NCBI GenBank assembly: GCA_965224465.1
Contig: OZ245049.1
Coordinates: forward strand, 2,520,001 to 2,552,000
Length of the DNA: 32,000 nt
Source of the DNA: Flavobacteriaceae bacterium
Lineage (GTDB): Bacteria; Bacteroidota; Bacteroidia; Flavobacteriales; Flavobacteriaceae
Reading direction: 5' to 3'
A program made the translations under genes and the position numbers. This document shows positions 22,510 to 32,000 of the stretch, one piece after another; position 1 is the stretch's first letter; every line of letters starts with the position of its first letter. Below the pieces are notes generated by a model, which did no database searches, was not told where the DNA came from, and worked only from the letters and a program-made list of their open reading frames with translations.

Positions 22510-23061
22510 CTAATCTTCAGTAACACTACCCCAATTTTCACCAGATTTGATACGGTATAATTGCATTTCAGAAATACCGAATTGTTTGGCAATCATTTTC
22601 ATACGAGTCTTTCTGTTTGGATCATTAATTTTCCGTTTAATCAATTTTACTTTTGCCTCGGTCAATTTAGAATACTTTCTAACTTTTGAAGCTTTAATAA
22701 CTAAAGGATTGCTTTTTTGATGTTGAGCAACTTCTGGTCTTGTCAACCATTTCAAATTATCTGATGCATTGTTTACCTTGTCAAAATCCAAGTGCGTTAC
22801 ATATTTTTTATCCTCTGGATTTTCTAAAAATGCTTTTGCAATTGCTCTATGAACATAACAGGAAGTCCTTTTCCCTCCGTTCTTAGAAATCCAAAACATT
22901 TTATAACCACCTGTCAAGTTTGTCTTCACTAATGCAAATTCATCTTGATCCACTTTACGTGAACTCACGCGACCGTAATTTGAAACTTCAAACAACTCAT
23001 TCTCACTCCATAAGTCCTCTCTGTAAGGCTTCCAAACCTCGTTTTTAAAATCTATTATCAT
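22510..23061 (-). CDS. NUMOD4 + HNH_3 homing-endonuclease-like protein with C-terminal HTH
   Basis: NUMOD4 pattern (WKPY...FEVSNYGRVSS), HNH_3 pattern (VHRAIAKAFL...HLDFDKVNNASDNLKW) and a C-terminal HTH (IAKQFGISEMQLYRIKSGENW). ATG 23061 is preferred over the GTG at 23085. Confidence 0.75.
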   Translation of the reverse strand: MIIDFKNEVWKPYREDLWSENELFEVSNYGRVSSRKVDQDEFALVKTNLTGGYKMFWISKNGGKRTSCYVHRAIAKAFLENPEDKKYVTHLDFDKVNNASDNLKWLTRPEVAQHQKSNPLVIKASKVRKYSKLTEAKVKLIKRKINDPNRKTRMKMIAKQFGISEMQLYRIKSGENWGSVTED

Positions 23062-23452
23062 ATAACCATTATTTAAGTACGTCACAAATATACAACTAAA
23101 TTACTCGAATTCAAACGACTACAACCATTTACAAACAGTTACATACGTAAGTAAGTATTTAACAACCAACTAAGCCCTTGCTATTGCTGTAATTTTGTAC
23201 TGTTGAATTGAATTAATAATTGTTGATTTCTTAACAAACACCTTATGAGTTCTTTAAAAAACAGAATTAAGTTAAGTAAACAGCTTCTAAAAATCGACAA
23301 AATGAGAAAAACACCAGAAATATACGGAATTAAAGAATACATACATTCTCACCTATAAATCATTATTAAAGCATCTAAACAACATAGAAAAATAATCTAA
23401 ATAATAACCAAAGACTTTACATATTAAAGCAACATTTAAAAATAAAAAAATC

Positions 23453-23788
23453 ATGAGCACACTTAGAAACAAAGTACAGTTAATCGGAAACTTAGGAAAC
23501 GACCCAGAAATTATCACTTTAGAAAGCGGTAAAAAATTAGCGAAATTTTCTTTAGCTACCAACGAAAGCTATAAAGATAGTGATGGACAAAAACAAACAA
23601 TTACAGATTGGCATAATATAATCGCTTGGGGAAAGACTACCGATATTATCGAAAAATATTTAACAAAAGGAAAAGAAGTTGCCGTAGAAGGAAAACTTAC
23701 CAATCGCTCTTACGAAACCAAAGAAGGAGAAAAACGATACATCACAGAAGTTGTAATTAATGAAGTTATGATGCTGGGGAGTAAATAA
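23453..23788 (+). CDS. ssb: Single-stranded DNA-binding protein, short form (OB fold only)
   Basis: NKVQLIGNLGNDPE...TDWHNIIAWGK...VAVEGKLTNRSYE...RYITEVV is the canonical SSB OB fold. The protein is 111 aa and ends without a Gly-rich linker or acidic tip. Confidence 0.9.
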   Translation: MSTLRNKVQLIGNLGNDPEIITLESGKKLAKFSLATNESYKDSDGQKQTITDWHNIIAWGKTTDIIEKYLTKGKEVAVEGKLTNRSYETKEGEKRYITEVVINEVMMLGSK

Positions 23789-23991: not shown

Positions 23992-26361
23992 TCAATTATT
24001 ACTTTTAATACGGTCTTGTTCGTCTTTAGATGAATTTGACCGCTCTTTTTCTTTACTATATTTTGAACCAAAATTGTAAGAAACTTGTAAATACACATTT
24101 TGACGCGACCAATCACTAATTATGTCAGCATCTATATTATTATATTTAATACTCCCCTTAAACTTTCTTTTTAGAATTTCTCCTACCCCTAAATTTACTT
24201 TCATTTTATCATTCATAAACTTTTTACTCAACCCAAAACTTATTCCCGCCAACCAATCATGCTCTATAAGCCCCTGTAAACCTCCTGTTGAATAATATCC
24301 TGTCATTTCAGAATTAATACCCCAAGGAAATTTGTATTCTAAATTTGTATACCAAGTCAAACTCCATTTATCGATATCAAAATTTGGCTGTAGATTTTGA
24401 GATTTGTACCTGTTATAGTTAACTATAAACCCAGTATAACCTTCTAGTTCACTCACGAAATTTATGGGGGCAAACGCTTTAAAATTCCAATTTTCTCTTT
24501 TTGAAATATTAATTGTCGAACGTGATGTTTGGGCTGAAACATTATTTTGTGTAACAATTTCAAATAAAGCATCTGACGTATCTTTGTAACCAATTGAGAA
24601 AAAAGGTTGATCATTATATGTCATATTAAATTGAAAACTATTTGTAAATGCAGGTTTTAAATTCGGGTTTCCTTCTTCAAAAGTATAGGGGTCATAATAA
24701 TAAACAAAGGAATTTAAAGAGCTATACGAAGGTCTTTGTATACGATAACTATACGACAGGTTTACTCCAAAAGTTTTAGATAACTTTCTTCCAATATTAG
24801 CACTAGGAAAAAATTTTGATATCTTACGTTTTTTAACCTCAGATGTATTTGTAGACTTTCCTATCGTCTCACTTTCTTCCCATCTCAGTCCTCCAGAAAA
24901 AGACCATTCATCCATAATAGAAGTGAATTTAGTATATATAGCACTAATATCTTCGTCAATTAAAAAACGATTGCTTTGAGTATCATTTAGGATAAAATTA
25001 CCACTGTTATTTTGCACAAACGACTGTAGGTTACTATCTGTATTTATTTTCGAGAATTTCGAACCAAACATCCAATTAAAATTATCGTTAAAAGTATGTT
25101 TGTAATCCAATTTATAAGTTAAAATATGATATGCACCATTTTGTAAATAACGTTGATTGCTATAATCTATAGTGCTTAACTCTCTTTTAAATAAATCATT
25201 TGTATTATCGTTGTTATAATCTATATAATTTACATCAAAAACAACTTTCTCTTTACCGTTATCAAACTTATAAAAAGGATTTATATTAAAAGTTACTCTC
25301 TCTTTATCAAAATCACTTTCTGTAAATAATGAATTAGATGAACTATCTCCTAATATTATAGTGCTATTAGAAGTTACCCTGTCCGAGTCTGTAAAAATCC
25401 TACTTGTACTTACTCCTACACTATGTTCATTGTTAATATAATAATCTAACGCTCCACTCAACCTAAATGTTTTAGGGTGAAAAGGTGAAATTGAAGCTTG
25501 ACTATACAAGAGTTCATTAACTTTACGATTGATAAATAAATCTTCTCTCCATGCAGATTTTTTATATCCTGTACTTACCTGCCAATTTAATTTGTTTTTA
25601 TAACTCGCAATAGAAAAGCTCGTTCCATATTCAAATTCATTGTCATACCCCGTATTTAGTTTAATGCTTCCGTTTGTACCAAGTTTTACATTTTTTTTTA
25701 AAATGATATTAATAATTGCACCTGAACCTTCGGCGTCAAACTCAGCACCAGGCTGTTGAATAAGCTCTACTTTAGCAATATTATCTGCAGGTAAATCGCG
25801 TAACAACGTATCTGTATCCATATAATTTGTCGTCTTCCCGTTAATGAGAATTCTTACACCTTGTTGCCCCGCGTAACTAATATTCCCATTTGTAACAATA
25901 ATTCCTGGTATTTTTTTCATAACATCCTGTAAGTTAGAGTTCATCATTTCAGAGTTTTCAAGGTTAATGATCAACTTTTCTGCTGTTTGGCGAATTACAG
26001 GCCTCGTACTTTTTATAACAACTTCATTTAAAGTTTGAGACTCTTCCTTTAAGGTAAAATTTAATTTAATTTCCTTATTTTTTTCGGATAACATGAAAGG
26101 CTTCGATTTCTGAATTTCAAAACCAAGTACTGACACTACTATTCGATAAGATCCATCTGAAATATTTTCAAAGGCATAATACCCAATATCATTACTACTT
26201 GTTCCTTTGACTACTTTATTGTTTAATTTATACAATACAATATTAGAAAAAGGTAATGATTCACCCGATTGTTCAATGATAACTCCAGAAATCCTATTTT
26301 GAGAAAAAACAAAATTCATATTGAATATAAAACATATAATAATTATTAATTTAATTTTCAT
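23992..26361 (-). CDS. Outer-membrane beta-barrel protein with carboxypeptidase-regulatory-like and plug-like N-terminal domains (TonB-dependent-receptor-like)
   Basis: Signal peptide (MKIKLIIIICFIFNMNFVFSQ), a CarbopepD_reg-like domain (ISGVIIE...GYYAFENISDGSYRIVVSVLGFE), a plug-like segment (DVMKKIPGIIV...GVRILINGK), then a long region of beta-strand periodicity. It is the last gene of the operon. Confidence 0.8.
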   Translation of the reverse strand: MKIKLIIIICFIFNMNFVFSQNRISGVIIEQSGESLPFSNIVLYKLNNKVVKGTSSNDIGYYAFENISDGSYRIVVSVLGFEIQKSKPFMLSEKNKEIKLNFTLKEESQTLNEVVIKSTRPVIRQTAEKLIINLENSEMMNSNLQDVMKKIPGIIVTNGNISYAGQQGVRILINGKTTNYMDTDTLLRDLPADNIAKVELIQQPGAEFDAEGSGAIINIILKKNVKLGTNGSIKLNTGYDNEFEYGTSFSIASYKNKLNWQVSTGYKKSAWREDLFINRKVNELLYSQASISPFHPKTFRLSGALDYYINNEHSVGVSTSRIFTDSDRVTSNSTIILGDSSSNSLFTESDFDKERVTFNINPFYKFDNGKEKVVFDVNYIDYNNDNTNDLFKRELSTIDYSNQRYLQNGAYHILTYKLDYKHTFNDNFNWMFGSKFSKINTDSNLQSFVQNNSGNFILNDTQSNRFLIDEDISAIYTKFTSIMDEWSFSGGLRWEESETIGKSTNTSEVKKRKISKFFPSANIGRKLSKTFGVNLSYSYRIQRPSYSSLNSFVYYYDPYTFEEGNPNLKPAFTNSFQFNMTYNDQPFFSIGYKDTSDALFEIVTQNNVSAQTSRSTINISKRENWNFKAFAPINFVSELEGYTGFIVNYNRYKSQNLQPNFDIDKWSLTWYTNLEYKFPWGINSEMTGYYSTGGLQGLIEHDWLAGISFGLSKKFMNDKMKVNLGVGEILKRKFKGSIKYNNIDADIISDWSRQNVYLQVSYNFGSKYSKEKERSNSSKDEQDRIKSNN

Positions 26362-26385
26362 AGAATAGCTTTTTGAATATAAATA

Positions 26386-26715
26386 TTATTTAATTTGTTC
26401 AATTTCAGACTTAACTTTTTCAATTTCGTCATCATATCCTATATTACTTCTATAGATTAATTTAAAATGACTTTCTCTAAGGTATATTTTTAAAAAATAT
26501 CTCTCATTATTTTTTATATACTTTATTTTCCCATCTCCCAATTCATCAAAATCAGAAAAATTGGTTTTTAAAATTTTATGGATTTTAATAAAATCTTCTT
26601 TATTTATTGTAACAGAATAGATTGTCTCATATTTTGATTGCATTAAAACTTCATTTTTTGAGCTACAACTAGCAAAAAAAAAGAGGATACTACTGCAAAT
26701 AATTCTTATATTCAT
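26386..26715 (-). CDS. Small lipoprotein of unknown function (possible immunity or accessory factor)
   Basis: Signal peptide plus lipobox (ILFFFASCSS). 109 aa. 5 nt separate it from the ABC gene stop and 24 nt from the OM barrel start. Confidence 0.55.
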   Translation of the reverse strand: MNIRIICSSILFFFASCSSKNEVLMQSKYETIYSVTINKEDFIKIHKILKTNFSDFDELGDGKIKYIKNNERYFLKIYLRESHFKLIYRSNIGYDDEIEKVKSEIEQIK

Positions 26716-26720
26716 AATAT

Positions 26721-28910
26721 TTAAATATTTAATTGATTTTTCACTAATGTATAATAATGTTGTTTCTTATTTATTAATTCCAAGTGGGTTCCTCTTTCTA
26801 CAACAGTACCATTAGATAAAACAACTATTTGATCTGCATTTCGAACAGTACTTAATCTATGTGCTATTATTACAACCGTTTTGTCTTCAAATAATTTCTG
26901 TAAATTAGAATGTACTTCCATTTCATTAGTTGAATCAAGCGCTGAAGTAGCTTCATCAAGAAATATGTATTTTGGATTTTTATAAATAGCTCTTGCAATT
27001 AAGATCCGCTGTCTTTGCCCCCCCGACAAACCATTTCCTCCAGACCCAATCTTAGTAAGTTCCTTTAAAGGTAATGAATTAATAAAACTAAACAAATTAA
27101 CTGCTTTTAAGGCTTTAAATAATTTATCTTTATCAATTTTAATTTCACTCATCACGATGTTTCTTTGTATTGTATCATTAAAAATATAACCATCCTGCAT
27201 AACAACACCTGAATTTTCACGAATACTTTTAGCAGATAATTTTTTTATATCATCAGACCCGTAAAATATCTCACCGTCTATTGTATCGAAAAATTTAAGA
27301 AGTAATTTCATTAAAGTGGTTTTCCCACTACCACTATGCCCTACGATTGCAGTGATTTTTCCTTTTGGTATATTAATACTTACATTTTCTAAAATAAAAT
27401 TTTCAGACAATTGATTATATTTGAAATTTAGATTAATCAAATCTATATCTACTGGTCCATAGCTTGGTTCTAGCGTATTATTGATATTAAAATCCTCTTC
27501 GTCCTGAGAATACACCTCACTTAACCTGTCAAAGCTTAAGAGTGCATCTTGTTGTGACCTAAAGAAATCCAAAAGTTGATGTACGGGAGAATTCATTTGC
27601 CCAATAATAAAAGAAACACTGAGAAGCGCCCCCAAAGTCATGTGATTATTAATCACATAATAAGCTGCAAGAAAAGTAACTAAAATATTTTTCAATTGAT
27701 TAAAAAAAACAAAACCGACAGACTGAAACTGTTCGATTTTTAATGACATAATATTAACTTTTAAAAGCTTATTCTGAATATCAATCCATTCATTTTTTTT
27801 ATACTCTTCGTACTGATTCAATTTCATTTCTTTAATCCCATTATAAAACTCAAATATTGCTTCTTGACTTTCCGACCGAGCTTTGAATAGTTTGTAGTCA
27901 ACTAACTCTCTCTTTTTCAACCAAAAGACTGACCAAAATATAGAAACCATTGTTAAAACCGAGAATAACAAAAATAAATAAAAATCATAATATAACAAAA
28001 TCATTGAATACAACATCAAAGTAATAAAGGAAAAAAAAGTTAAAATACTTTCAGATGTTAAAAATTGTTCAATCTTGACATTATCTTGTATACGCTGATT
28101 AAAATCGCCTGAGTTTTTTGTGTCGAAAAAACTAATTGGTAAACTTAAAATTTTGTCTAGGTATGAATAGATGATGTTAACACTAAGTTTAGTCCCAATT
28201 ATTAAAGTAAACCAGTTTCTCAAAATATTTATACACATTATACCTATAAAAACAAATAACTGAGCTAAAACTATCAATCCTAATAAATTAATATTTTTTT
28301 TATTAACACCTCTATCAATTAATGCTTCAGTTAAAAAAGGTAAAGTTATATTTAAAACACTTCCCATAAAGAATAACCCAAAGAGTAAAATTATTTTTTT
28401 CTTAAAAGGACTAAGAAGCTCAATAATTGGTCTAATTCTTCTAACAAAACTATTTTTATTTTTATTTTCAGAAAACTTAAGAGTTGGACTCAAAAAAAGT
28501 GCTACTCCATAATTATCATCATTTAACCATAAATTACAGAAATCTTTCCTTGATAATTTAATTTTTCCATGTGCAGGATCTACAATTAGAAATTCTGTTT
28601 TATTTTTATTAATCGCTTCTAGAACCAAAAAATGATTCATATTCCAATATAAAATACATGGTTCCGTAAAATTTTCAATCAATTGCTCTATATTTAATTT
28701 TAAACAATGTGTTTTAAAACCAATTTTTTTAGCCGCATGTATTATCCCCAACATTGAGACCCCATCCTTTCCGATTTGACACAGTTCTCTCAAACTGTGT
28801 AATCTATAATTATTTCCGAAATAGTTCGTGACCATACTCAATGATGCAGGGCCACAATCCATTTGATCATGTTGTCTTACCAAGGTTATATTTTTTTTTC
28901 TTTTGAGCAT
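26721..28910 (-). CDS. Peptidase-C39-domain ABC transporter (double-glycine leader cleaving bacteriocin/lantibiotic exporter, LanT/SunT type)
   Basis: N-terminal C39 motifs with an intact catalytic Cys (QHDQMDCGPASL) and a His region (NHFLVLEA...VDPAHG). Six-TM domain. Walker A GHSGSGKTT, signature LSGGQRQR, Walker B IFLDEATSALD, H-loop IIAHRLS. Confidence 0.93.
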   Translation of the reverse strand: MLKRKKNITLVRQHDQMDCGPASLSMVTNYFGNNYRLHSLRELCQIGKDGVSMLGIIHAAKKIGFKTHCLKLNIEQLIENFTEPCILYWNMNHFLVLEAINKNKTEFLIVDPAHGKIKLSRKDFCNLWLNDDNYGVALFLSPTLKFSENKNKNSFVRRIRPIIELLSPFKKKIILLFGLFFMGSVLNITLPFLTEALIDRGVNKKNINLLGLIVLAQLFVFIGIMCINILRNWFTLIIGTKLSVNIIYSYLDKILSLPISFFDTKNSGDFNQRIQDNVKIEQFLTSESILTFFSFITLMLYSMILLYYDFYLFLLFSVLTMVSIFWSVFWLKKRELVDYKLFKARSESQEAIFEFYNGIKEMKLNQYEEYKKNEWIDIQNKLLKVNIMSLKIEQFQSVGFVFFNQLKNILVTFLAAYYVINNHMTLGALLSVSFIIGQMNSPVHQLLDFFRSQQDALLSFDRLSEVYSQDEEDFNINNTLEPSYGPVDIDLINLNFKYNQLSENFILENVSINIPKGKITAIVGHSGSGKTTLMKLLLKFFDTIDGEIFYGSDDIKKLSAKSIRENSGVVMQDGYIFNDTIQRNIVMSEIKIDKDKLFKALKAVNLFSFINSLPLKELTKIGSGGNGLSGGQRQRILIARAIYKNPKYIFLDEATSALDSTNEMEVHSNLQKLFEDKTVVIIAHRLSTVRNADQIVVLSNGTVVERGTHLELINKKQHYYTLVKNQLNI

Positions 28911-28912
28911 AA

Positions 28913-29407
28913 TTAAATTTGATCAAATTCACTAAAACAATATTCGTTAAAGCTATTTACAATTTGTTTATAAAAAATCGTTTTTTTTCGTATAATTAAA
29001 CACGGAATATCCTTTTTATATAACTCATAATTGGTCAGAATAACATGATCTTCGAAATTTGCTTTACAAATTCTATTCCACAAATTAACTCTAGTTTTCC
29101 CTCTTGTTTTTCTGAAATTTATAGAATTTTCCAATTGATTGTGAGTTTGTAAAAAAATCGCATCGTAATAACCAACAAGCTCTTTCATAAAAATGATTAT
29201 TGTTCTTATAACTTTATAATCTTTTGGTGGATTTTTAATTCCACATTTCAATGATAACTCTAAAATATTTTTGGTTCCCCCACATAAAGTATCATAACTA
29301 ACATCTGATTTACTAAGAATAAAGCAATATTTTATTCCGCTATCCGACACAAAATAGTAACTATTTAATCCTTGCTTTTTTATTTTATAAAATTTTGAAA
29401 TCTCCAT
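28913..29407 (-). CDS. Hypothetical 164-aa protein, translationally coupled within the RiPP operon
   Basis: The ATG at 29407 overlaps the upstream gene by 23 nt, and the stop lies 2 nt before the ABC start. I recognise no motif. There is no signal peptide or TM segment. Confidence 0.5.
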   Translation of the reverse strand: MEISKFYKIKKQGLNSYYFVSDSGIKYCFILSKSDVSYDTLCGGTKNILELSLKCGIKNPPKDYKVIRTIIIFMKELVGYYDAIFLQTHNQLENSINFRKTRGKTRVNLWNRICKANFEDHVILTNYELYKKDIPCLIIRKKTIFYKQIVNSFNEYCFSEFDQI

Positions 29408-30692
29408 TTTCGATTAATTCTAATTCATTAACAATAATACCTTTGTTGTTTATTAAAACCCTTAAAAAGTACATAATTACATCTTTCGGGAAATTATTAA
29501 ATTCTTTCAAAATGGATTTAACACTAACTTCTTTAGAATTATTAATCATTTTAATTATACCTATTAATTCAGGGAAATATTTAAAAGAAAGCCTCGTACC
29601 ACGAACGTACAGAATTAACCTATCCTCAACTTTCTCAACTTTTATCATATACAAATTATTTGATGTGATTATTTTACTTTCTAAATTAGGGAAATAATCT
29701 TTAGTACTATCCATTTTACCAAAATAACTCAAAGGTATACTCTGCCACCCCCCATTGCTTGTCAAACATTTTTTGTATTCATTATAAGTTTGTTTTAAAA
29801 AATCTTGTAGTGGTGATTTTAAAGCTTTCTCACTAACATTTAGTGTATTTATAAAATCAAAAAAAGTGTTTTCATTGTTGATATAATCTTTTTGACATGG
29901 AATTATACTTTGATCATTTTTAATAAATAAGTTCTTAATAGTATCTATCATTAATTTTGAGTAGTTATACTTTGTGGGGTTGTTAAACCAAAGGGTTACA
30001 CCAATAGAAAAGCTTTCTGAACATCCAACATGATGCTTATCCCATGGCATAGAATACAAATCCCCCCTACCAAATTCATGTTTTTCAGCATATTCCAACA
30101 ATGGTTCAATATTTCTATTATTTGAAAGCCCCTTACCAACTTTACTATATGTTTTTTCATCCCAAACATACATTTGTTTTTTTCCTGGCCCTAAATGGTA
30201 ATGTAGTACATTTTCTCCTCTATTATCTCTATGAATCCCAAGAGGGGTCCATCCATAATTACCTATGAAAGTAGTAAGTTCTATTCCCCAAGGAGGTATC
30301 CCAATAATATCAAATAATGGTTGTACTGTTTTCAATATATATCCCGCCAAAATTTCCGAATGTTTTTCTCCATAATTAGTTATTATACCAAAATTTTCAC
30401 CGAATACTCGTTCACAATATGATTGTATACCTTCATCGCTACTTAATTCATTTTTCTCAATTAATTTAATGATTTCTGAGTCACTCATTTCTATGCCGTC
30501 AACATATAACCTAAATCCATTACTTATATCTAGTCTATTTATTCTAGATTTAAGCATTTCAAGAACACCTTCATTTAATACATTCACTAAATCATTCGAC
30601 ATGCACCCCTCATAAACTTGTGTCTTTGTAAATGAAAAATTTTTCGCCATAAAAGACTTCCACCAATCGTGATTAAAGTTATTTGTTTTCAT
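29385..30692 (-). CDS. JmjC/cupin-4 (ribosomal-oxygenase-like) Fe(II)/2-oxoglutarate-dependent oxygenase
   Basis: HxD...H facial-triad arrangement in a cupin context: WTPLGIHRDNRGENVLHYHLGPGKKQMYVW, then GRGDLYSMPWDKHHVGCSESFSIGVTLWF. By recollection this parallels E. coli YcfD/RoxA: GVGPHLDQYDVFIIQGTGRRRWRVG ... PGDILYIPPGFPHEGYALENAMNYSVGFR. The N-terminal (DWWKSF..) and C-terminal extensions are also ROX-like. No alignment was computed. Confidence 0.6.
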   Translation of the reverse strand: MKTNNFNHDWWKSFMAKNFSFTKTQVYEGCMSNDLVNVLNEGVLEMLKSRINRLDISNGFRLYVDGIEMSDSEIIKLIEKNELSSDEGIQSYCERVFGENFGIITNYGEKHSEILAGYILKTVQPLFDIIGIPPWGIELTTFIGNYGWTPLGIHRDNRGENVLHYHLGPGKKQMYVWDEKTYSKVGKGLSNNRNIEPLLEYAEKHEFGRGDLYSMPWDKHHVGCSESFSIGVTLWFNNPTKYNYSKLMIDTIKNLFIKNDQSIIPCQKDYINNENTFFDFINTLNVSEKALKSPLQDFLKQTYNEYKKCLTSNGGWQSIPLSYFGKMDSTKDYFPNLESKIITSNNLYMIKVEKVEDRLILYVRGTRLSFKYFPELIGIIKMINNSKEVSVKSILKEFNNFPKDVIMYFLRVLINNKGIIVNELELIENGDFKIL

Positions 30693-31022
30693 TATTCCTC
30701 TAGTTTTGTTACTATCTCTAATAAAATACTTGTTCTATAAAAAAAATTAAATCTGTAATTTCTAACTGTGTATTTTTTTATTCTTTCTTAAAATCCTAAT
30801 TTTGTAATCTACCCAATAAAGTATCATTGTGGTAAGTGGGTAGTTTCATATAAAAAACGTCTATATTACTAACTATTGTTACTAAATCAACAAATCATAT
30901 CATTAAAACGTTTCACTAATATGTTTTGAGTGGAACGTGTAAATATTTTGGCTTTCAAATATGCATAAACACTGAATTAAGTAAAATGCTGTTATTTACT
31001 AATCTCTAAAATATTATTTATT

Positions 31023-31059
31023 GAAAAATGTAAGGATGTTTTACAGAAAACACCCTTAC
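31023..31059 (-). terminator. Intrinsic terminator/attenuator immediately downstream of the precursor peptide genes
   Basis: The minus-strand RNA would fold GUAAGGGUGUUUU-CUGU-AAAACAUCCUUAC (13-bp stem with one G-U pair), followed by AUUUUUC. It begins 21 nt after the stop of the second peptide gene. Confidence 0.5.
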
Positions 31060-31079
31060 GAGTAAATTAGAACATTATT

Positions 31080-31208
31080 CTAGCTTTCTACTTTCACTTC
31101 CTTTTTCTTTTCTTTCTTTGGTCTCTCATGCCCCCCTAATAAGGTTTGACTTTCAAGTGCCGATAATTCCTCAATATCAAGAAATTTTTTTGGATTTAAT
31201 TTTTTCAT
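31080..31208 (-). CDS. RiPP precursor peptide 2 (42 aa), double-glycine leader
   Basis: Hand-translated and below the ORF-track size cutoff: MKKLNPKKFLDIEELSALESQTLLGG|HERPKKEKKKEVKVES. It is a paralogue of the adjacent peptide. The leader fits the LSxxELxxIxGG-type consensus. Confidence 0.75.
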   Translation of the reverse strand: MKKLNPKKFLDIEELSALESQTLLGGHERPKKEKKKEVKVES

Positions 31209-31232
31209 AATAAAAATTTTAATTTGTAAATT

Positions 31233-31358
31233 TTACTTTGTTTCAACTTTTTTCTCTTTCTTTTTATCTGGTCTTTCGTGCCCTCCCTTTAAGGTTTGGC
31301 TTTCTAAAGCTGATAATTCTTGAGTATCTAAGAATTTTTCTGGTTTTGAATTTTTCAT
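31233..31358 (-). CDS. RiPP precursor peptide 1 (41 aa), double-glycine leader
   Basis: Hand-translated: MKNSKPEKFLDTQELSALESQTLKGG|HERPDKKKEKKVETK. Across the 16 shared codons ELSALESQTL and GGHERP the two genes differ at 7 positions, all synonymous. Confidence 0.75.
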   Translation of the reverse strand: MKNSKPEKFLDTQELSALESQTLKGGHERPDKKKEKKVETK

Positions 31359-31478
31359 ATTAAAAATATAATTAAGTTAAACCTACTCATTGCTGGCTTT
31401 TCGGTTTCCGCCAATTTTTACTGCAGTAGTATTGTTTAACAAATAAATAATATTGTTATATAAATTCCAAAAATGTTT

Positions 31479-31523
31479 TCTTGAAATTTATAAATACAAA
31501 CATGATATTCATAAATTTCAAGA
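31479..31523. promoter_or_regulatory. Perfect 13-bp inverted repeat (candidate operator) in the divergent intergenic region
   Basis: tcttgaaatttat-N19-ataaatttcaaga, between the precursor genes (minus) and the LanB gene (plus). Confidence 0.35.
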
Positions 31524-31583
31524 ATAACAATAACACTCTAACAACTTGCTTGTTAGCTTATTACATCTTTGAATTAAAACAAC

Positions 31584-31591
31584 TATATTTA
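31584..31591 (+). promoter_or_regulatory. Candidate -7 box (TATATTTA) upstream of the LanB gene
   Basis: Near match to TAnnTTTG, 21 nt before the ATG at 31613. It lies inside the 12-mer ACTATATTTACG that is also found at 3974-3985. Confidence 0.3.
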
Positions 31592-31612
31592 CGGAGAACA
31601 TTTTATAAAACC

Positions 31613-32000
31613 ATGCGGAAACAACGGAACCCCTATCAATTTTTAAGAACTTATTGCTTAAGAACCCCTCTTTTAGCCCTGAATATCTTAGATGATGTAT
31701 TTGGAAATAGACGGATTGATAAAAAAGCCTTAAGAACCTACTGGAATGATTCAGTAATTAAAGAAGCATTATTTTTAGCCTCTGCGGATTTACACCAACA
31801 ACTAAATCTGCTGTTTTTGGACCGCATAGAAAATACAAAAAAAGAGGAACGGCTGGTGCATAGTTTTTTAAAATACCTCCTTAGAGCTTCCACAAGGTGT
31901 ACTCCTTTTGGATTATTTGCGGGGATATCTATTGGGACCTTTGATACACATACAGCCATTCACATAGCTACCATAAATAACCATCGTAGAATTACGCAAT
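31613..32000 (+). CDS. Lantibiotic dehydratase (LanB family), N-terminal 129 codons; continues beyond the window
   Basis: Absent from the ORF track (no stop in the window). Translation: MRKQRNPYQFLRTYCLRTPLLALN...VIKEALFLASADLHQQL...FLKYLLRASTRCTPFGLFAGISIGTF. The LRTPLL and R.(S)TR.TPFGLF..(I)S.G motifs are the hallmark N-terminus of LanB/NisB-type dehydratases (NisB has YLRSTPFGLFSETSIG). An in-frame ATG at 31502 is an alternative start. Confidence 0.85.
   Translation, partial: MRKQRNPYQFLRTYCLRTPLLALNILDDVFGNRRIDKKALRTYWNDSVIKEALFLASADLHQQLNLLFLDRIENTKKEERLVHSFLKYLLRASTRCTPFGLFAGISIGTFDTHTAIHIATINNHRRITQ

Follow-up and report, generated by a model that had tools for sequence, protein, structure and literature searches.

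A LanB-type dehydratase, probably split and with a precursor of its own, beside a Cys-free peptide module in a Flavobacteriaceae genome

We analyzed a 32-kb stretch of DNA from a Flavobacteriaceae genome (hereafter the window), at one end of which the beginning of a LanB-type dehydratase gene lies back to back with two small peptide genes, pepA and pepB, referred to as the HERP or K/E peptides. The reading that we favour, and consider likely, is that the dehydratase is a split LanB which modifies its own downstream, Cys-free precursor, and that the HERP peptides belong to a separate, autonomous oxygenase/exporter module. A preliminary description of this DNA had paired the LanB with substrates unable to form lanthionine: the pairing with the HERP peptides did not hold up, but the notion of a LanB that makes no lanthionine probably does. 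Gene adjacency alone would thus mis-assign RiPP substrates here, and the analysis yields a concrete prediction for the sequence just past the window. Features past position 32000 are deduced from relatives (loci numbered with the prefix L) that are only 40–49% identical to the window LanB over its visible 129 aa. The features of the window on which the argument draws are as follows.

31613..32000 (+): LanB_N, first 129 codons (PF04738; NisB alignment; 35–49% identity to 80 genomic LanB_N genes)
31359..31612 (no strand): divergent intergenic region between pepB and LanB, 254 bp (read from the sequence)
31233..31358 (−): pepB, double-glycine-leader precursor MKNSKPEKFLDTQELSALESQTLKGG, core HERPDKKKEKKVETK (ORF listing; leader family)
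31080..31208 (−): pepA, double-glycine-leader precursor MKKLNPKKFLDIEELSALESQTLLGG, core HERPKKEKKKEVKVES (ORF listing; leader family)
31030..31059 (−): terminator-like hairpin of 13 pairs with a T-run, ~20 nt past the pepA stop and before p435
29385..30692 (−): p435, predicted ribosomal-oxygenase-like JmjC Fe(II)/2-oxoglutarate oxygenase (fold search; invariant residues)
28913..29407 (−): p164, conserved small protein without a family match (syntenic in L027, L081, L082, L084, L088 and others)
26721..28910 (−): peptidase-C39/ABC bacteriocin-type exporter (PF03412, PF00664, PF00005)
26386..26715 (−): p109, small protein with a lipoprotein-type signal, ..FFFASC.. (sequence; syntenic in relatives)
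23992..26361 (−): outer-membrane beta-barrel (CarboxypepD_reg + Plug + OMP_b-brl_3), end of the module (Pfam; beside p435 homologues in many loci)

Positions 31613–32000 (+) encode the N-terminus of a real LanB-type dehydratase, that is, of its glutamylation domain. The reading frame starts with ATG and continues for 129 codons without a stop to the window end; as had been remarked earlier, it is absent from the ORF listing because it runs off that end. The earlier assignment by hallmark motifs, LRTPLL (residues 16–21) and LRASTRCTPFGLFAGISIG (residues 90–108), was borne out. Pfam profile PF04738 (Lant_dehydr_N) matched residues 46–121 at profile positions 2–78 of 649 with an E-value of 9.1e-20 and a score of 70.8 bits (cut-off, 28), which is far beyond chance, and in an alignment to NisB (PDB 4wd9) residues R91, R95 and T97, carried by the motif LRASTRCTPFG (Arg-x3-Arg-x-Thr-Pro-Phe-Gly), fell on NisB R83, R87 and T89. 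In NisB these residues are needed for glutamylation. NisB shares this N-terminal domain and motif with the window LanB but, unlike the enzymes of the window clade described below, is a fused protein of ~1000 aa whose partner is NisC, whose Cys-rich substrate is nisin and whose leader recognition relies on FNLD. Among solved structures, the fragment matched PDB 9g04 best (E 3.6e-11). This protein of 1038 aa, titled 'thiopeptide-type bacteriocin biosynthesis domain containing protein', is closer than NisB or MibB.

A homologue search with the 129-aa fragment returned only fragments of 99–225 aa, which were of no use for judging architecture. Scanning species-representative genomes retrieved 80 loci with a LanB N-terminus 35–49% identical to that of the window, nearly all of them in Flavobacteriaceae (for example, Aquimarina, Tenacibaculum and Kordia), and the architecture could be judged in 76. 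In these, LanB_N is a closed ORF of 730–780 aa, and a separate LanB_C gene (about 270–314 aa) lies directly 3' of it in 75 of the 76, the sole fused enzyme being that of L048, 1063 aa long and from an Omnitrophota genome. Pfam searches of L027, L001, L088 and L144 found a complete PF04738 and a separate PF14028. The LanB_C of L088 reached the cut-off of TIGR03891 (thiopeptide-type bacteriocin biosynthesis protein), aligned to the elimination domains of solved LanBs and, like the window fragment, had PDB 9g04 as its best solved-structure match (E 1.7e-19). A separate Lant_dehydr_C gene is present in all loci syntenic with the window. Split LanBs are known from pinensin and thiopeptides (PMC7268733). 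Judging by these relatives, the window LanB_N is expected to extend to about 740–770 aa and to be followed by a separate LanB_C of ~285 aa.

This architecture bears on an earlier suggestion that the enzyme is a small LanB or PEARL, adding an amino acid to the peptide C-terminus from an aminoacyl-tRNA. At ~750 aa, and with the N-terminal domain only in the polypeptide, the relatives do have the size that the preliminary description took as diagnostic, and PEARLs or small LanBs such as TglB resemble them in this respect (~750–850 aa, only the tRNA-dependent N-terminal domain). PEARL clusters, however, are without any elimination domain, whereas a stand-alone PF14028/TIGR03891 elimination gene is directly next to LanB_N in all but one of the judgeable relatives; the relatives' LanB is therefore a split dehydratase and not a PEARL, and we give the aminoacyl-tRNA extension the smallest of chances.

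The relatives divide into two groups, each of about half of the loci. In one, a LanC-like gene sits at −1.1 kb, immediately before LanB_N, and the precursors contain 2–11 Cys, which is the pattern of conventional Bacteroidetes class I lanthipeptide clusters; in the other, LanC is absent within 10 kb. A LanC-like hit at +3.2 kb was also obtained in two loci, L051 and L066. In a neighbour-joining tree built on the N-terminal ~130 aa of LanB_N, the window LanB fell in a nine-member subclade with L001, L003, L004, L005, L009, L026, L088 and L144, all eight of which are without LanC and have an AraC/TPR gene, and the LanC-positive loci formed the other half of the tree. No LanC-like sequence was found in the 32-kb window, and the slot of LanC in the LanC-positive relatives is occupied there by the divergent peptide genes. 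From these relatives we infer that the window LanB belongs to a LanC-less Flavobacteriaceae clade of split LanBs. The clade is apparently uncharacterised; literature searches (LanC-less Flavobacteriaceae LanB; prolyl oligopeptidase with LanB) did not find a description of it, and a large RODEO survey took only clusters with LanC and Cys-containing precursors, a requirement that leaves LanC-less split-LanB clusters out (PMC7268733).

If LanC and a Cys-rich LanA lay beyond the window, the cluster would be of the conventional class I lanthipeptide type, which would agree with about half of the related loci being of this type and with the downstream LanC-like hits of L051 and L066. However, the relatives' LanC is at −1.1 kb, where the window holds the divergent peptide genes, and the window N-terminus groups within the LanC-less clade, so we regard such a cluster as unlikely. 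The preliminary description had named two findings that would speak against its pairing, namely HERP peptides conserved elsewhere without any LanB and conventional Cys-rich LanA genes with LanC downstream. HERP-type peptides are indeed conserved without LanB, as detailed below, but the LanB-associated precursors are not conventional, being Cys-poor and without LanC, so that only half of this held.

The usual gene order in LanC-less loci is LanB_N, LanB_C, a TPR/AraC regulator (~565 aa) and one or two short GG-leader precursors, and the next gene is often an S9 prolyl-oligopeptidase-family protease rather than a transporter. In L027 the regulator begins with a signal-like segment, has a hydrophobic stretch in its interior and ends in an HTH_18 domain. 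Leaders of the precursors are of the LxLxKx5L...GG type, and the LxLxKx5L leader has been reported for Bacteroidetes class I LanAs (PMC7268733). We collected 28 distinct cores with LxLxK-type leaders from LanC-less loci: all contain Ser/Thr (S+T fraction 0.158), 10 are without any Cys, and several have a P-x-K-T-x-P-T motif in common. Within the window's subclade, 7 of the 8 known cores are Cys-free (for example, NNGEPIKTKPTIRARQ, VAMNDDPIKTSPTIR and NGDDDRPKTRPTMDNEDEI). All four sequenced loci with the juxtaposition of LanB and K/E peptides (L027, L088, L144 and L147) have their own LxLxKx5L-type GG-leader precursor 4–6 kb downstream of the LanB start, with the K/E peptides on LanB's other side, which favours the earlier proposal that further precursors lie beyond the window.

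The P-x-K-T-x-P-T precursors with the S9 prolyl-oligopeptidase-family gene after them are found in the regions 6737–9103 of L001, 1659–4033 of L088 and 2457–4843 of L144, and the S9-family catalytic domain in LanC-less LanB loci is closest to oligopeptidase B. Speculatively, a 2-oxobutyryl N-terminus could arise if the S9 enzyme cuts in front of a dehydrated Thr.

[quoted passage not shown] Kordia and other LanC-positive sister loci share even the AraC/TPR gene with the window clade. Unlike the pinensin type, the window clade often has an S9 peptidase; it also lacks LanC within 10 kb and has precursors with 0–2 Cys, mostly 0, and for these two reasons lanthionine rings are not expected. The split dehydratases of thiopeptides and goadsporin (TbtB/TbtC) are like the window clade in that dehydroamino acids are made without LanC. 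The clade's cores, however, are short, hydrophilic and Cys-poor, unlike those of thiopeptides, and Pfam scans of cluster genes in L001, L027 and L088 turned up no YcaO, azoline or [4+2] cyclase gene. What is delimited by these comparisons is a LanC-less split-LanB clade of marine Flavobacteriaceae with short, hydrophilic, mostly Cys-free precursors, a TPR/AraC protein and often an S9 peptidase.

In the mechanism that we propose, Glu-tRNA(Glu) would supply the glutamate that LanB_N attaches by an ester bond to Ser/Thr of the precursor encoded downstream of it, and LanB_C would then eliminate this glutamate to give Dha/Dhb; glutamylation and elimination are established class I chemistry (PMC9993889). 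Going by the relatives, LanB_C should be followed by a membrane-anchored TPR/AraC regulator, then by a short precursor gene or a pair of them, encoding an LxLxKx5L...GG leader ahead of a core of 15–26 aa that contains Ser/Thr and usually no Cys, and next, probably, by an S9 prolyl-oligopeptidase-family protease. After dehydration, the precursor would be cleaved at its GG site, possibly with further trimming by the S9 peptidase. A cyclase and Cys would both be missing, so that we expect a linear dehydrated peptide and not a lanthipeptide, and the window LanB is thus probably not lanthionine-forming.

The HERP peptides are probably not substrates of the window LanB. The preliminary remark that the peptides adjacent to LanB have no Cys and a single C-terminal Ser/Thr, and cannot form lanthionine, is confirmed by the two cores listed above: no Cys follows the GG site in either, and only one Ser or Thr is present in each, close to the C-terminus. 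Double-glycine leaders of bacteriocins have L at −12, S at −11, E at −8 and a hydrophobic residue at −4. The pepA and pepB leaders, ...ELSALESQTL(L/K)GG, show this pattern at all four positions and have a C39-ABC transporter adjacent; the leader of the K/E peptides agrees with the canonical C39 double-glycine signal but not with LxLxKx5L. Both peptides belong to a leader family of 132 peptides found beside p435 homologues. PepA also gave a sub-threshold match to PF14406 (E 0.0016), a family discussed alongside graspetide precursors (PMC8939145); this weak match was therefore taken as shared leader features only, and membership of pepA in PF14406 was rejected.

In the 254 bp between pepB and LanB (31359..31612), a promoter scan found sigma-70-like matches at a frequency not above shuffle expectation, and a scan for the Bacteroidetes −7 motif TAnnTTTG found none. 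The terminator-like site at 31030..31059 is a consensus match only (1 found versus 0.3 expected in shuffles); a hairpin after pepA fits a separately tuned precursor transcript.

Downstream of pepA and pepB lies p435, a protein of 435 aa with no Pfam or NCBIfam match. A profile search against PDB sequences gave nothing meaningful, and only a fold search gave matches: in Foldseek the AlphaFold (AF2) model (pLDDT 89.8) had YcfD, NO66 and MINA53 as its best folds (E 1e-14 to 1e-12), with FIH next. We found 114 homologues, all Bacteroidota where named, and in an alignment of 33 of them H154, D156, H221 and K172 were invariant. p435 thus has the double-stranded beta-helix fold, the HxD...H triad and the 2OG-binding basic residue by which JmjC enzymes are recognised. 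The model likens it to YcfD/RoxA, NO66 and MINA53 in its three-part fold and HxD...H metal triad; it has, however, no detectable sequence similarity to these proteins and, where they act on ribosomal proteins, its gene goes with those of exported GG-leader peptides. We consider p435 likely to be a JmjC-type Fe(II)/2-oxoglutarate peptide hydroxylase, with pepA and pepB as its predicted substrates. The C39-ABC exporter, closest to TIGR03796 and TIGR01193 among NCBIfam models, would cut at the GG site and export the peptide.

Homologues of p435 are almost always flanked by one to six small genes with a common leader (FL..K.LSPLE....GG) and a C39-ABC exporter, and often also by an OMP_b-brl_3 barrel and small conserved proteins. 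The low-complexity cores of the 132 precursors collected beside them vary by lineage (K/E, VR, TV, IR, poly-Q and H/D). The module (window 23992–31358 (−); loci L081–L161) looks like an undescribed RiPP-like family that is widespread in Bacteroidota; literature searches for YcfD-like RiPP enzymes or a JmjC peptide family found no description. Bacterial JmjC neighbourhoods with non-ribosomal peptide systems have been described by Iyer et al. 2010 (PMC2938197), and were rejected as a match to the p435 peptide family as they concern different peptide systems. Among the otherwise Cys-free K/E peptides, one peptide per locus has a KCKCKCKC core in L027 (8769–8924 (−)), L084 (9653–9805 (+)) and L093 (194–346 (+)), with or without an adjacent LanB.

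The link between LanB and this module was assessed in 31 non-redundant p435 loci that were found independently of LanB and had at least 5 kb on both sides. There was no LanB in the examined flanks of 27 of them, and conversely the K/E module is carried by only 1 of the 80 LanB loci (L027). The share of K/E cores without Ser/Thr was 24% where LanB is adjacent and 29% where the locus is LanB-free (Fisher p 0.77). Among loci of the close subfamily, whose p435 is at least 60% identical, 4 of the 9 K/E cores of LanB-adjacent loci are without Ser/Thr, and in 6 of the 7 loci the slot taken by LanB in the window is filled by genes for ThiF, a LuxR-type regulator and a protein of 228 aa.

The preliminary description had also proposed a dehydration by LanB at the one C-terminal Ser/Thr of each HERP peptide, after which the terminal Dha/Dhb would be amidated or cross-linked. 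In the window the LanB and peptide genes are direct, divergent neighbours, both window cores have one Ser/Thr near the C-terminus, and the LanB/K-E juxtaposition recurs in L027, L088, L144 and L147, all of which would suit this proposal. However, both K/E cores of L088, the closest LanB-adjacent locus, and 2 of the 5 in L027 are without Ser/Thr; Ser/Thr is not enriched in K/E cores by the presence of LanB; the K/E family occurs mostly without LanB; and the HERP leaders do not have the LxLxKx5L motif of LanB-associated precursors. With a quarter or so of the cores (24–29%) offering no residue to dehydrate, and the peptide family mostly LanB-free, we abandoned the proposal as very unlikely.

The slot holding the ThiF-like E1, LuxR-type and 228-aa genes extends over 6571–8954 in L081, 7083–9480 in L082 and 6484–8826 in L084. 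Its LuxR-type (GerE) regulator resembles EpsA/SdiA, and the 228-aa protein has a weak match to the exosortase-associated acyltransferase TIGR03694. The two could possibly form an acyl-signal pair where the window has the LanB cassette.

LanB was nevertheless present near the p435 module in 4 of the 31 loci, or 5 of 32 when L137 is counted, and its placement varies; by a rough estimate this adjacency is far more frequent than expected if each genome had one or two LanB loci placed at random. Divergent split LanB cassettes lie beside the module in L088 and L144/L147. In L137 (435–5483) a fused LanB of 1035 aa is divergently beside a poly-Q peptide and a p435 homologue, and in L135 (9688–18563 (+)) p435, Q-rich peptides and C39-ABC are followed on one strand by LanB_N-like and LanB_C genes, the LanB_N-like gene being divergent in sequence, with a match to PF04738 positions 4–204 only. 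L087/L127 have a self-contained LanB-LanA-LanC cluster 12 kb from the p435 module. An earlier option, that the two modules are simply unrelated neighbours, was dropped as the LanB adjacency recurs in the metagenome sample.

Such co-localisation raises the prospect of joint chemistry, in which p435 would beta-hydroxylate the low-complexity cores and LanB would glutamylate and eliminate the new hydroxyls, acting on residues other than Ser/Thr (Lys, Arg, His, Gln, others). If true, this would place dehydro-amino acids at positions never seen in RiPPs. The repeated pairing, including the same-strand arrangement of L135 and the fused LanB by a Q-rich peptide in L137, and the match of the p435 fold to beta-hydroxylating ribosomal oxygenases are consistent with it. 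Yet window-type loci have a dedicated Ser/Thr precursor for LanB, and most p435 modules work without LanB. We know of no chemistry in which a LanB eliminates hydroxyls made by an enzyme like p435. A milder variant makes the LanB product a pheromone: the LanB cassette would produce a dehydrated peptide, the TPR/AraC protein would sense it and switch on the neighbouring export module, and the cassette would in this reading replace the LuxR-type regulator/acyltransferase pair of LanB-free loci. The joint chemistry is a long shot, and its odds are no better when the pheromone variant is counted in.

Returning to the reading with separate substrates, pepA and pepB would most likely be hydroxylated by p435 and then cut and exported by the C39-ABC transporter, and the simplest reason for the back-to-back modules would be shared GG-leader processing and export or shared regulation, not shared substrates. 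A comparable arrangement is found in Aquimarina, where the LanC-less LanB operon divergently adjoins HlyD, C39-ABC and hydrophobic GG peptides resembling class II bacteriocins (L002 5562–9619 (−); also L006, L007, L010 and L013); LanB cassettes thus tend to adjoin GG-peptide export modules of more than one kind. We regard the HERP module as autonomous but possibly coupled to LanB in some loci, through export or regulation. As the LanB precursors have GG leaders and the cassette is usually without its own C39 transporter, a shared exporter is the most economical link, and co-regulation through the TPR/AraC protein is another possible one. More broadly, JmjC proteins with exported low-complexity peptides may constitute an undescribed RiPP family, and their repeated pairing with LanB is a testable lead.

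The peptide/LanB region (window 24001–32000) has a G+C content of 26–30%, compared with 34–37% in most of the remaining window, and may mark an acquired island; no tRNA genes were found in the window. Just past the end of the outer-membrane barrel gene lie a gene for an HNH_3 endonuclease-domain protein (22510–23085 (−)) and an SSB gene (23453–23788 (+)), which may be a mobile-element remnant at the island border.
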